Sequence record: NC_054933.1
DNA length: 64,000 nucleotides
Strand: one strand, 5' to 3'
Source of the DNA: Escherichia phage teqhad
Both the position numbers and the translations under genes were made by a program. Within the stretch, counting starts at the first letter, position 1, and each line of letters opens with the position of its first letter. Below the pieces are notes generated by a model. The model ran no database searches. It was not told the DNA's origin and saw only the letters and a list, made by a program, of their open reading frames with translations. Below, one piece after another: positions 12,680 through 46,838 of this stretch.

Positions 12680-12891
12680 ACATTCATCAACTTAGCCGCT
12701 TCAAGAGCTGCATCTAGTGAATCAAATTGGTCAACATATTCAATCAATTCGCCATAATTGGCATATAACCACCATTGGCTAAATTCATACTCAAGGATGA
12801 ATCCGTTTCCTTCAATTTGAGTTAAACCAATGCCATTTGTATTTACTTCATATCCAGCAAGACGCAAATCGTTAATAAGAGCTTCGTTCAT
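12676..12891 (-). CDS. hypothetical early protein
   Basis: 71-aa acidic ORF. Confidence 0.5.
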   Translation of the reverse strand: MNEALINDLRLAGYEVNTNGIGLTQIEGNGFILEYEFSQWWLYANYGELIEYVDQFDSLDAALEAAKLMNV

Positions 12892-26468: not shown

Positions 26469-26502
26469 TTTATTCTCCAAATCCGTATCAGTTGATAGTT
26501 GT

Positions 26503-26532
26503 ATAGTACCATAAAGCTTTATGCTTGTAAAC
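26503..26532 (-). promoter_or_regulatory. T4-type early promoter
   Basis: Minus strand GTTTAC - 18 nt - TACTAT with A/T-rich UP-like tract. Confidence 0.55.
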
Positions 26533-26562
26533 CGTTTTGTGAAAAATTTTTGAAATAAAAAA

Positions 26563-37060: not shown

Positions 37061-37534
37061 TTATTTGAACGATTTAACGTACTGAATAGAACCTTTACTA
37101 TTTACAAAGGCAATTTTACCATTTTTATTATACATGGTAGCAGTACGTTGATAACCATAAGTTTGTTTACCAGATTGATAACCAACTAATGCGAAATTAT
37201 CTTCGCCCATTTTATTCTGTTTAGCGCGAATGCGTTCATGACCATGTGCCATAAGAACCTTAGCATCACCGGTTGCAATGGATCTACGAGTTTTTTCATC
37301 TTCAACTGTATTAACAAAGTCGTCAAATGAATCAAATTTAGCATGAGATTTATTATACAGTTTTCCATCTACTGCATAATTATATCCCTGTACATCCATC
37401 TCAACTTCTGTACCATCATCCAATACAGCAGTGATTTTTTGACCTTTTTTAAATTTCAAAAGATCAGTAAAAGATTCAGCAATAATTTGAGAATTAATAG
37501 CTGCTTCAGTGATAAATTCTTGATATGTTTTCAT
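37061..37534 (-). CDS. internal head protein (IP) with capsid-targeting sequence
   Basis: 157 aa; N-terminus MKTYQEFITEA is the T4-type CTS cleaved by prohead protease. Confidence 0.75.
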   Translation of the reverse strand: MKTYQEFITEAAINSQIIAESFTDLLKFKKGQKITAVLDDGTEVEMDVQGYNYAVDGKLYNKSHAKFDSFDDFVNTVEDEKTRRSIATGDAKVLMAHGHERIRAKQNKMGEDNFALVGYQSGKQTYGYQRTATMYNKNGKIAFVNSKGSIQYVKSFK

Positions 37535-42089: not shown

Positions 42090-42355
42090 TTATTTCATAT
42101 TATTGAAATATTCTTCTGCGATTTCGTCGTTATCATGGTAAACTTTAGAAGACAGTTTAACATAACCTTCAGCAGTGAACATGTTAATCACAACCTTTAC
42201 AGTATACCACTGACCATCTTCATTACCCATTACTGCGTAAGTTTCAAACATCGGATGGTCAGGACCGATAACTTTAATATCATTCACTGTACGACCGAAA
42301 TCTTCTGAAACACATTTCATAAAGAAGTTGAACAGCTCACCGTAATTATCCATTT
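42090..42355 (-). CDS. hypothetical protein (88 aa from MDNYGELF)
   Basis: GGAG SD upstream of the internal ATG; the track start lies upstream of the promoter. Confidence 0.5.
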
Positions 42356-42396
42356 CATTCTCCAAGTTGTTTTCTGTATCAGTAGTTGATAGTTGT

Positions 42397-42426
42397 ATAG
42401 TACCATGGAAGGGCAAGGATGTAAAC
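42397..42426 (-). promoter_or_regulatory. T4-type early promoter
   Basis: Minus strand GTTTAC - 18 nt - TACTAT, with A/T-rich UP-like tract. Confidence 0.55.
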
Positions 42427-42563
42427 CGTTTTGTGAAAAAATTTTTAAAAAGTTTTGGGGAATTCTAGGGCAGGAAGGGGAAATCAAAGGATAGGATAAT
42501 ATATTATAAAGGGTAGAAACTAAATGATGTCTAGAGAGGCCCGGAAAGGCCTAGATACCAAAA

Positions 42564-42587
42564 AGCCCCAACCTTTCGGCTAGGGCT
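42564..42587 (-). terminator. GAAA-loop hairpin downstream of the IP-like gene
   Basis: Minus-strand RNA AGCCCUAGCC-GAAA-GGUUGGGGCU followed by U-run. Confidence 0.55.
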
Positions 42588-42594
42588 AAGAATG

Positions 42595-43068
42595 TTATTT
42601 GATTTGTTTAGCAGACCAAATGCGATCTTTAATAATTTTTTGGATGTCTTCAACATACTCTAGGTCATGAGCATGTGGATTATCTTTGAAACTATGAGCT
42701 CGCGCAAGTTTCTGGCCTTCGGTCTTAATTATCAAAAGTTCTTTAAGAATTGCTTCATACCTAGAGATAATTCCTTTAGCAATATTTTTTTCTTGTGCTG
42801 CTTTAGGGTCAGCCTTAGGAGCAGGTTTACCTGAAGCCTTTGCAAAAGCAGCTCCAGTAGCAACTAAACTTTTCCAGGCCATACTAACTGCATTTCCCGT
42901 AAATCCTTCTGCTTTCATGTCGCGAGCAAATTGGAATCGTGATTCATCAGAAGCATCTTTATAGGAATATTTACCCGCTGCAATGGCTGCTTTTGCGACA
43001 GCTTGAATTTCGGTGCTAAACGCTTCATTTAACACCGCTTCATTTAAAAATTGAGTATATGATTTCAT
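42595..43068 (-). CDS. internal-protein-like protein with CTS-like N-terminus
   Basis: 157 aa; MKSYTQFLNEA resembles the CTS MKTYQEFIAEA; Ala/Lys-rich. Confidence 0.6.
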   Translation of the reverse strand: MKSYTQFLNEAVLNEAFSTEIQAVAKAAIAAGKYSYKDASDESRFQFARDMKAEGFTGNAVSMAWKSLVATGAAFAKASGKPAPKADPKAAQEKNIAKGIISRYEAILKELLIIKTEGQKLARAHSFKDNPHAHDLEYVEDIQKIIKDRIWSAKQIK

Positions 43069-43104
43069 CTTATTTCCTGTTTTAATTTGTAGATTTAATA
43101 TACT

Positions 43105-43112
43105 TATTTATA
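43105..43112 (-). promoter_or_regulatory. late promoter TATAAATA
   Basis: Minus-strand TATAAATA about 37 bp upstream of the IP-like ATG. Confidence 0.5.
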
Positions 43113-43118
43113 CTAAAA

Positions 43119-43142
43119 AGCCCCAACCTTTCGGCTGGGGCT
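43119..43142 (-). terminator. GAAA-loop hairpin, near-identical copy of the 42564-42587 element
   Basis: Minus-strand RNA AGCCCCAGCC-GAAA-GGUUGGGGCU followed by U-run. Confidence 0.55.
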
Positions 43143-43458
43143 AAGCCTTGCGGCAACCTTGTCGGGGTTCCACCTGCTAAGGCAAGTGTTTGTACGAAAC
43201 GCCGGGATTCGAACCCGGTTATCAAGCAGTTGACGCTACTCAATATTTTTAAAAGGCCATATCTCGACCATATCCGAACGTTCCGTCAAAAACGCTACTC
43301 GGCTTACGGCAAAGATATTTCCTCGAATCGATAATTCGGTGCGCCGTTTCTGCTGTGATGTAAGGGGATATTAACAAATCATAAAGATTTATTAAGACCA
43401 GTCCTTACTCAGGGAACATCAGTCCGACGTCTTGCCGGTAGCGACCCGGCTTCTTGTT

Positions 43459-43534
43459 TGGTCGAGGCAGTAGGGATCGAACCTACGACCCAGGACTTAG
43501 AAGGTCCTTGCTCTTCCTTCTGAGCTATGCCCCG
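43459..43534 (-). tRNA. tRNA-Arg (anticodon UCU)
   Basis: Manual fold: acceptor CGGGGCA/UGCCUCG, anticodon loop CUUCUAA, T-arm GUAGG-UUCGAUC-CCUAC, CCA encoded. Confidence 0.8.
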
Positions 43535-44412: not shown

Positions 44413-45021
44413 TTATTTATTACGTGAAAAAGATTGTTCTATCAATTCTGGACACTTTCGTTCTATCCATTTTCTAGCTTTTTGTGGGCTTATACCTATT
44501 ATTTTAGCAGCTTTACTAACCCATCCAAATTTAGAATAATCGATTTTAACTAATTCTTCGTAAATTTCATCAGTTAAAATCTTTTCATTAATATTTACCA
44601 GTAAATGATATAATTTATTATCATTAGCAATTTTAATGAATCTTTTATAGTTTCCGCCTTTACTTAAACCTAATGAAGTAATTGCAGATGATATAGTAGC
44701 CGAATTTAATAATGCGTTTAAAATTTCTTCATCACTAACATTATAACGCTTTTTATTATTTTTAATATTTTTACCAGCAAAAGTATCAGTTTGCGAATGG
44801 CAATTTGGACATAATAATCTTAAATTTGATTTAAGATGATTTTTATTATTTCCATCAATATGGTCTAATTGCAGAACAATATGCTTATTTTGCCATTTTG
44901 AAATTTTACAAATTGCACACTCATATGGAAAAATATTTTCTTTTATTATTTTGTCTTTCAGCTTTCCTGTACTAAAATTTGGATGTTTTCCTTCAAAAAT
45001 TTCAGCTAATTTAGTATCCAT
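44413..45021 (-). CDS. HNH homing endonuclease with C-terminal helix-turn-helix, abutting tRNA-Leu
   Basis: About 202 aa from MDTKLAEIF; HNH core CAICK...QLDHIDGNNKNH...NLRLLCPNCHS; stop is 6 nt from the tRNA-Leu 5' end. Confidence 0.8.
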   Translation of the reverse strand: MDTKLAEIFEGKHPNFSTGKLKDKIIKENIFPYECAICKISKWQNKHIVLQLDHIDGNNKNHLKSNLRLLCPNCHSQTDTFAGKNIKNNKKRYNVSDEEILNALLNSATISSAITSLGLSKGGNYKRFIKIANDNKLYHLLVNINEKILTDEIYEELVKIDYSKFGWVSKAAKIIGISPQKARKWIERKCPELIEQSFSRNK

Positions 45022-45120
45022 AATATAATTCCCAATTATTAACAAAGGCTCTCAAACAAGAGCCCTTGATGATAGAGGGTATTAATCAGTGCGGTATGAG
45101 TTAATAATAACAAATAATTC

Positions 45121-46586: not shown

Positions 46587-46838
46587 TTATTTTTTACGAA
46601 AAATTGATTTATATTTATCAGCCCATTTCTCGATGACTTTTTCTGGTCCATAGATAACAAAATAATCACCAAACTCTTCACCACCGAGTTGACCGAAATT
46701 ATCTAATGCATCACGAAGAACTCCATGAGGCATTTCGCCCATTTTATCTTTCTTACCAATGTAAATAAACTCAACTTTTACATCAGCAGCTTCAGCAATA
46801 AATTCTTGATACGTTTTCATTTTATTCTCCAATTTCAC
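46587..46838 (-). CDS. small internal-protein (IPI-like) with CTS
   Basis: CTS MKTYQEFIAEA beginning at the internal Met (76 aa from that start); position upstream of 57B as for T4 ipI. Confidence 0.7.
   Translation of the reverse strand: MKLENKMKTYQEFIAEAADVKVEFIYIGKKDKMGEMPHGVLRDALDNFGQLGGEEFGDYFVIYGPEKVIEKWADKYKSIFRKK

Follow-up and report, generated by a model that had tools for sequence, protein, structure and literature searches.

A terminator-bounded gene for a candidate head internal protein between rnaC and e.8 in a T4-like phage

Introduction

The internal proteins of T4-like phages enter the host before any phage gene is expressed. The T4 internal proteins and the polymorphic internal-protein genes of the T-even phages were reportedly described by Repoila and colleagues in 1994 and by Mullaney and Black in 1996, and the morons of lambdoid phages reportedly by Juhala, Hendrix and colleagues in 2000. 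Here we describe a gene for a 157-amino-acid (aa) protein in a 64,000-nucleotide (nt) stretch of Escherichia phage teqhad (NC_054933.1), called the window throughout and numbered from its first letter. The gene lies between e.8 and rnaC, which closes the tRNA cluster at its 3' end, with a near-identical hairpin on either side. Together with a putative late promoter and one copy of the hairpin it forms a unit of 555 base pairs (bp) that is precisely absent from T4. We think it likely that this unit is a self-contained late moron sitting on the terminator of the tRNA/rnaC operon, that its product is targeted to the head, cleaved and injected, and that the repeats ease its deletion.

IPI*, the internal protein studied in depth, blocks a restriction system that attacks modified DNA (PMC3012670). 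Mutational work on the N-terminal targeting sequence has been summarised as assigning targeting to residues 4 and 7 and processing to residues 8 and 10 (PMC9026906). Internal-protein genes are said to be absent outside two loci (Arbiol 2010, PMC2839356), and the same paper reports from Repoila 1994 that the variable loci of internal proteins carry promoter/stem-loop elements, and from Mosig 1998 that GGGC/GCCC motifs were sites of deletion in T4. Shuffling by way of promoter-early stem-loop (PeSL) elements, of which empty sites hold just one, has also been described (Arbiol 2010, PMC2839356; Comeau 2014, PMC4122927). The shuffling principle itself has been published before (Repoila 1994, Arbiol 2010). 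Internal proteins are not a subject of Petrov 2010, and a literature search for RB32ORF133c found nothing.

Results

The additional unit at the rnaC-e.8 junction consists of a late-promoter motif, a ribosome-binding site, the 157-aa gene and one terminator copy (Table 1); its 555 bp are made up of 519 bp of unique sequence and one 36-nt repeat. T4 has 284 bp and a single hairpin between e.8 and rnaC, and with the unit taken out the window is colinear with T4 at 91.9% identity and without a gap at the junction. The unit is an exact presence/absence polymorphism. It has what is expected of a moron, namely a promoter motif and a terminator of its own and a position between two genes, rnaC and e.8, that are adjacent in T4 and in phage PST.

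The original prediction, made from the letters alone, had described near-identical 24-bp hairpins around a 157-aa gene with a capsid-targeting-like start (MKSYTQFLNEA) and a late promoter of its own. These observations were confirmed, and the interpretation placed on them is partly supported, as set out below. The two 24-nt elements differ at a single base (A/G at the 19th position), and they are the only such elements found when the 64-kb window is scanned at up to three mismatches, with no match in 100 shuffles. The direct repeat proper is longer than had been described, reaching 36 nt with 34 of 36 positions identical. As to the promoter, TATAAATA, or the variant AATAAATA in Mosigvirus-type loci, stands in the same place at all orthologous loci. 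The window shows no enrichment of the motif (12 occurrences against 11.2 expected), a point that tells against reading it as a promoter; it counts here because of its position and its conservation at orthologous loci, not because of enrichment.

The 157-aa open reading frame (ORF) is a real gene under purifying selection. Among nine distinct orthologs the differences concentrate at the third codon position (276, 220 and 1124 at positions 1, 2 and 3), which is why we regard it as real, and synonymous codon changes number 988 as against 378 non-synonymous ones. Its only PHROG match is PHROG 2280 (E 8e-58), labelled as of unknown function, and no match was found in Pfam, NCBIfam, PADLOC or PDB, including a PDB sequence profile. 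Searched exhaustively with HMMER, 1.84 billion representative proteins yielded no more than 13 hits. The AlphaFold2 model is all-helical (predicted local distance difference test, pLDDT, 75.8), with an N-terminal helical region, a Pro/Ala/Lys linker (76-87) and C-terminal helices at 88-124 and 131-154; a Foldseek search with this model found nothing in BFVD and PDB beyond orthologs and helical matches that were not significant. In composition the protein resembles the known internal proteins, with an isoelectric point (pI) of 9.4, 13% Lys and 18% Ala, compared with pI 9.3-9.5 and 13-15% Lys in IPII and IPIII.

The N-terminus is a credible capsid-targeting sequence. All four critical positions are kept (Y4, F7, L8 and E10), cleavage by the prohead protease gp21 is predicted after Glu10, and a second L-N-E site ends at Glu15. 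In distant family members from the exhaustive HMMER search, with identities of only 24-49%, M1 and F7 never vary and L8 hardly does; position 4 is either Y or F in every case, and Glu is the usual residue at position 10, so that the N-terminus is among the best-conserved parts of the protein. A six-frame scan of the window found only three ORFs that start with the motif, the 157-aa gene and the two genes of the canonical internal-protein loci (37061-37534 and 46587-46820), the latter both belonging to PHROGs labelled 'internal virion protein'. Alternative genes at the same slot in other phages also begin with the motif, as MKTYAEFLTE in a 187-aa gene and MYTVNEFLAE in locus L054. In the Yersinia phage fD1 the ortholog, g140, was listed as particle-associated at the strict threshold by LC-MS/MS (Table S3, PMC8309999), and the fD1 homologs of two known internal proteins, g129 and g146, appear in the same strict list (Table S3, PMC8309999).

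Several points weigh against an internal protein, and most of them also give substance to the rival explanation that survives best, in which the 157-aa protein is a late non-virion product, for example an assembly or regulatory factor, and the N-terminal likeness is inherited or coincidental and does not direct packaging. Beyond the first ~11 residues no likeness to known internal proteins is seen (BLASTP against the ipIV-like protein of the window, E 0.99), as is also typical of internal proteins past their targeting sequence, and PHROG 2280 has no assigned function. All 60 records sampled for its annotation list the gene as hypothetical or not at all. The original prediction had spoken of an internal-protein locus; that part needs correcting, as the rnaC/e.8 slot is neither of the two recognised ones (57B-tRNA.4 and denV-e), a discrepancy that concerns location and not mechanism. 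The fD1 proteome is unspecific, listing 113-137 of 277 phage proteins together with 672 host proteins, and because DenV, lysozyme and NudE are listed too, detection in fD1 supports the assignment weakly. Against the non-virion explanation stand the targeting and processing residues, which occupy some of the best-conserved columns in a family that is highly divergent, the even more canonical motif of the alternative cassette, a composition typical of internal proteins, and the strict-threshold detection in fD1 particles. We consider a non-virion role unlikely, though not far-fetched; the product is probably packaged in the head and enters the host along with the DNA.

Turning to the repeats, minus-strand RNA of both copies would form a stem of 10 bp capped by a GAAA loop and trailed by U5, the GC-rich stem-loop and U-tract typical of Rho-independent terminators, and a terminator scan calls both. 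Hairpin 1, downstream of the gene, folds at -18.3 kcal/mol as minus-strand RNA, compared with -9.7 for the plus strand; hairpin 2, upstream, folds at -20.6 (z -3.96) and -15.9 kcal/mol respectively. The A/G difference between the copies and an internal 'mismatch' become G.U wobbles on minus-strand RNA only. Because of the stem and U5 tail, the stronger minus-strand folds and the wobbles confined to that strand, both hairpins are predicted to be intrinsic terminators of the coding strand; the annotations of fPS-2, Aplg8 and vB_EcoM_112 likewise list them as predicted terminators only. Rfam reported no family over the hairpins or rnaC, only tRNAs. Hairpin 2 is orthologous to the sole T4 hairpin after rnaC (L003 7835-7858), in the same position and with 22 of 24 bases identical. 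Compared with T4, then, the window has a second copy of the operon terminator 555 bp downstream, where it ends a different gene: the terminator of the 157-aa gene is a near-copy of that of the tRNA/rnaC operon.

Using a composite 'empty-site' query, the locus was found in 731 phage records, and an evenly spaced sample of 60 was examined. The slot occurs in four states: empty, with the 157-aa gene, with a 187-aa gene, or with both. It is empty in T4 and in PST, whose annotation (ipIII-ipVI) is from the Krisch laboratory, and within the sample in RB5, Sf24, SV76, W143 and one more record. The 157-aa gene alone is the commonest state in the sample, and is found for example in the window, fPS-2, Aplg8 and fD1. 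An insert of ~685 bp at some sampled sites proved to be a second cassette, encoding the 187-aa protein (MKTYAEFLTEA at its start), which occurs alone in SP1 and IME340. Some sampled sites were too large for the search to join; the large sites hold both cassettes in tandem, as in ime09, L020 and L028. The original prediction had suggested looking across T-even genomes for alternative genes here, and such a gene, of 187 aa, does occur. By tblastn the 157-aa gene is present in 510 phage records, in one copy each and at a fixed site, and the 187-aa gene in 165, compared with about 731 records holding the locus; a locus search with the 157-aa protein alone gave nine IMG/VR loci. Both proteins match PHROG 2280 strongly. 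We do not claim that they are paralogs, as neither pairwise BLASTP nor hhalign of shallow profiles (probability 20%) confirmed a kinship.

The repeats are conserved as boundaries of the cassette in part. On the upstream side, every Tequatrovirus and Mosigvirus locus that was examined has the rnaC terminator followed by the late-promoter motif. On the downstream side most loci have the same hairpin family, namely those of the window, fPS-2, Aplg8, fD1, ime09, L019, L020, L028, L062, phiE142 and Shf125875, but in L049, L074 and L076 its place is taken by an unrelated shorter hairpin (AGCCCCGTCTGGGGCT) and in L054 by another unrelated one (GGGGACCTTCGGGTCCCC). A distant homolog in fHe-Yen9-01 (L078) has no upstream hairpin, and the downstream copy is missing there too. 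Given these downstream replacements and the absence in L078, the repeats are not universal boundaries. The alternative cassette does occupy the same slot, but not between the same repeats: the 3' hairpin of the 187-aa cassette (AGCCCTATC...GATAGGGCT) has only AGCCC and GGGCTTTTTGG, ~10 nt, in common with the rnaC terminator.

Two loci merit separate mention. In L054 (12437-13058) a PHROG 2280-type gene follows the rnaC terminator in two frames split at a run of nine A (about 12806-12814), either by a sequencing error in a metagenomic contig or by a frameshift; with the frames joined, it resembles the 177-178-aa variants of Klebsiella and Yersinia phages. In L009 (3523-3982), a T4-like contig, a 127-aa gene (MLTYAEFLNRN...VLTEA) ends at ~45 nt of the rnaC trailer and the same hairpin; rnaC itself is missing, and here another internal-protein-like gene is associated with the same terminator module.

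The replaced downstream hairpins favour a second rival explanation, that the two hairpins are independent terminators, alike through a favoured design of GC-rich stem and GAAA loop, and that the repeat has played no part in the gene's history or mobility. In unrelated phage contigs, too, unrelated genes end in the same hairpin core. In L031 (IMGVR_UViG_3300045125_000071), a 251-kb contig apparently from an unrelated jumbo phage, CCCCGACCGAAAGGTTGGGG(C) with a T-run occurs four times on the plus strand between 5212 and 8634, three of the four directly 3' of a small ORF, and this core, which is that of the T4 rnaC terminator, occurs in dozens of unrelated IMG/VR contigs, many of them carrying it once. 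Likeness of the hairpins alone is therefore weak evidence for duplication. Against independent origins, the identity reaches past the stem-loop into CTTAG on one side and TTTTT-N-GTAT on the other, the T4 empty site equals exactly one repeat unit, and rare stem variants are common to both copies, AG in the window and TT in L069; for these reasons we favour a common origin or conversion, and find the independent-terminator explanation improbable. Concerted evolution of the two copies is no more than suggestive, as they co-vary in two of four informative genomes and disagree in the other two.

A third explanation, an autonomous or endonuclease-driven mobile element with the repeats as its ends or target-site duplication, could draw on the bounding direct repeats, the patchy presence and a homing-endonuclease gene nearby in the tRNA cluster (a weak HNH match at 44413-45045; segB in T4), but we reject it as very improbable, given that the 519-bp unique segment holds the 157-aa gene only, with no nuclease, transposase or recombinase signature, that genomes carry a single copy each, and always at this site (510 records), and that the 'target' copy is a predicted functional terminator present at empty sites too.

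The region as a whole is 95-98% identical to hundreds of Tequatrovirus (T4-like) genomes, with Shigella phage JK23 the best match at 98%. By comparison with annotated relatives and T4, all genes in the stretch around the 157-aa gene are minus-strand genes, and they are transcribed in the order tRNA cluster, rnaD and rnaC, the 157-aa gene unit, e.8, then e.7 and e.6. T4 and phage Aplg8 match the rnaC region at 97-99% identity; in Aplg8 rnaC is annotated. The promoter sequence of e.8 is identical in T4, and the fPS-2 annotation has a predicted early promoter there.

Table 1. Features in and around the 157-aa gene unit (positions in the window).
Feature	Position	Strand	Basis or remark
tRNA cluster, tRNA-Leu through tRNA-Arg	44406-43459	-	Annotated relatives and T4
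tRNA-Arg	43459-43534	-	Adjoins rnaD/rnaC
rnaD and rnaC	about 43456-43193	-	Annotated relatives and T4
rnaC (species 1 RNA), final gene of the tRNA cluster	43193..43331	-	Coordinates from T4 annotation (L003 7909-8047)
Trailer from rnaC to terminator, ~47 nt	43146-43192	-	
Repeat copy 2, with hairpin 43119-43142 (AGCCCCAGCCGAAAGGUUGGGGCU then U5, minus strand)	43110..43145	-	Predicted tRNA/rnaC operon terminator, upstream cassette boundary
T4-type late-promoter motif TATAAATA (putative promoter)	43105..43112	-	3 nt past the U-tract of the upstream hairpin, 36 nt upstream of ATG
Ribosome-binding site AGGA	43075..43078	-	6 nt upstream of ATG, read from sequence
Gene for 157-aa basic helical protein, PHROG 2280, candidate head internal protein	42595..43068	-	ORF
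Capsid-targeting-sequence-like propeptide MKSYTQFLNE, first 10 codons	43039..43068	-	Comparison with T4 IPII/IPIII MKTYQEFIAE
Repeat copy 1, with hairpin 42564-42587 (AGCCCUAGCCGAAAGGUUGGGGCU then U5)	42555..42590	-	Predicted terminator of 157-aa gene, downstream cassette boundary
Sigma-70/early-type promoter of e.8 (TTTACA, 17 nt, TACTAT), downstream of cassette	42397..42425	-	Promoter scan
e.8 homolog, conserved left flank of slot	42090..42353	-	98% identical to T4 e.8

Some features of the surroundings were noted in passing. The two canonical internal-protein loci of the window carry their own genes. That at 37061-37534 (-), directly downstream of denV, is an ipIV-like gene (PHROG 3155, MKTYQEFITEA), also of 157 aa, and unlike T4 the window has neither ipII nor ipIII between denV and e. 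The gene at the ipI locus (46587-46820) is a 77-aa variant in PHROG 8111. Directly after tRNA-Leu, where T4 has tRNA-Gln, lies a 210-aa ORF (44413-45045, -) with a weak, sub-threshold HNH endonuclease match (PF01844, E 0.0057), probably a free-standing homing endonuclease in the tRNA cluster; segB is absent from the window, whose set of tRNAs comprises Arg, His, Asn, Tyr, Met, Thr, Ser, Pro, Gly and Leu. Just past hairpin 1 along transcription, and before the e.8 early promoter, is a small inverted repeat (TCTAGAGAGGCCCGGAAAGGCCTAGA; 42531-42556), which T4 has too with both arms altered. Finally, a 66-nt stretch in the upstream region of e.8 (42384-42449) is 82% identical to intergenic 26490-26555, a likeness that probably reflects the extended conserved sequence of T4 early promoters and is probably the reason why BLAST searches hit several places per record.

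Discussion

The anatomy of the unit and its comparative genomics are shown above; the way in which we propose that it works is as follows. Early and middle transcripts of the tRNA cluster would stop at hairpin 2. Late in infection RNA polymerase with the phage late factors would start at TATAAATA, transcribe the 157-aa gene and stop at hairpin 1, which would insulate e.8 and its early promoter from late transcription. The first 10 residues would dock the protein on the scaffolding core of the prohead, where gp21 would cut off the propeptide after Glu10, possibly after Glu15, and the mature basic protein, of ~16 kDa, would stay with the DNA in the head and later be injected. Once in the cell it would probably counter a host defence, by analogy with IPI* (PMC3012670).

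As to how the unit comes and goes, the 36-nt direct repeats could ease its precise deletion through recombination over short homology or through slippage in replication, after which a single hairpin would remain, the T4 state. Ordinary homologous recombination between co-infecting phages, acting in the conserved flanks e.8 and rnaC (92-98% identical), could also add or remove it. The original prediction had the repeats supporting cassette exchange. An exact presence/absence unit relative to T4 is in keeping with this, but exchange in co-infection needs only the flanks, so the repeats are best invoked to explain loss or the original duplication, and not exchange.

A broader reading, to which we give somewhat less than even chances, is that the rnaC-e.8 junction is a third, unrecognised internal-protein locus, occupied by a fast-diverging PHROG 2280 family of packaged and injected proteins, and that the terminator repeats serve as short-homology joints for gain, loss and conversion of modules. 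The set would comprise the 157-aa and 187-aa genes and variants of 169-205 aa, 'hypothetical' in more than 500 genomes, each gene forming a late-promoter/terminator module stacked on the terminator of the tRNA operon. If true, this would contradict the published confinement to two loci and add to the candidates for injected anti-defence proteins: some 510 sequenced T4-like phages would supply such candidates, which may help explain differences in host range among therapeutic T4-like phages. A locus with all four states is also a natural series for following gain and loss of a terminator-bounded module. The value of these findings is incremental, because the underlying principles, capsid-targeting sequences and the shuffling of regulatory cassettes, are already in the literature.

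Of the systems described previously, lambdoid morons resemble our unit in that one gene, equipped with a promoter and a terminator of its own, is inserted between two that are neighbours in relatives. Here the gene is transcribed codirectionally with the genes on either side, it lies between homologous repeats, which are no requirement for moron accretion, and its expression would belong to lytic growth and not to the prophage.

The likeness to PeSL cassettes lies in repeated promoter/terminator composites around a small non-essential gene, and in the single element at the empty site of a relative: two copies in the window and one in T4, as for RB49 ORF192 compared with phage phi1. Here, in contrast, the terminator is followed by a late promoter (putative) and not by a sigma-70-like early one, there are two copies in 64 kb and not a dense array, and we have no evidence of mini-circles. 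A PeSL would unite a sigma-70-like early promoter and a stem-loop within a single intergenic motif, conserved and ~100 bp long; a promoter scan found no sigma-70-type site overlapping either repeat, the nearest being ~140 nt past hairpin 1.

The closest comparison is with IPI, IPII and IPIII of T4 and the polymorphic ipIV, ipV and other such genes of the T-even phages. As in these, the product is a small basic protein with an N-terminus of the MKTYQEFIAE pattern (an aromatic residue at 4, Phe7, Ile or Leu at 8, Glu10) and a body unrelated to other internal proteins, and the gene is present or absent between close relatives with regulatory elements on both sides. It differs from them in its site, at rnaC/e.8 and not at the ipI or ipII/ipIII locus, and in its targeting-like sequence, MKSYTQFLNE, in which five of ten positions differ, two of the changes being conservative. 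Packaging and cleavage are predictions here, and nowhere in the sample is the protein annotated as internal. Whereas the elements at T-even internal-protein genes were described as early promoters and weak AT-rich stem-loops (PMC2839356), this one has a late-promoter motif and a strong GC-rich terminator. What sets the present locus apart is the third site, the pairing of a GC-rich terminator with a putative late promoter, and a family that carries no internal-protein annotation in any sampled record.

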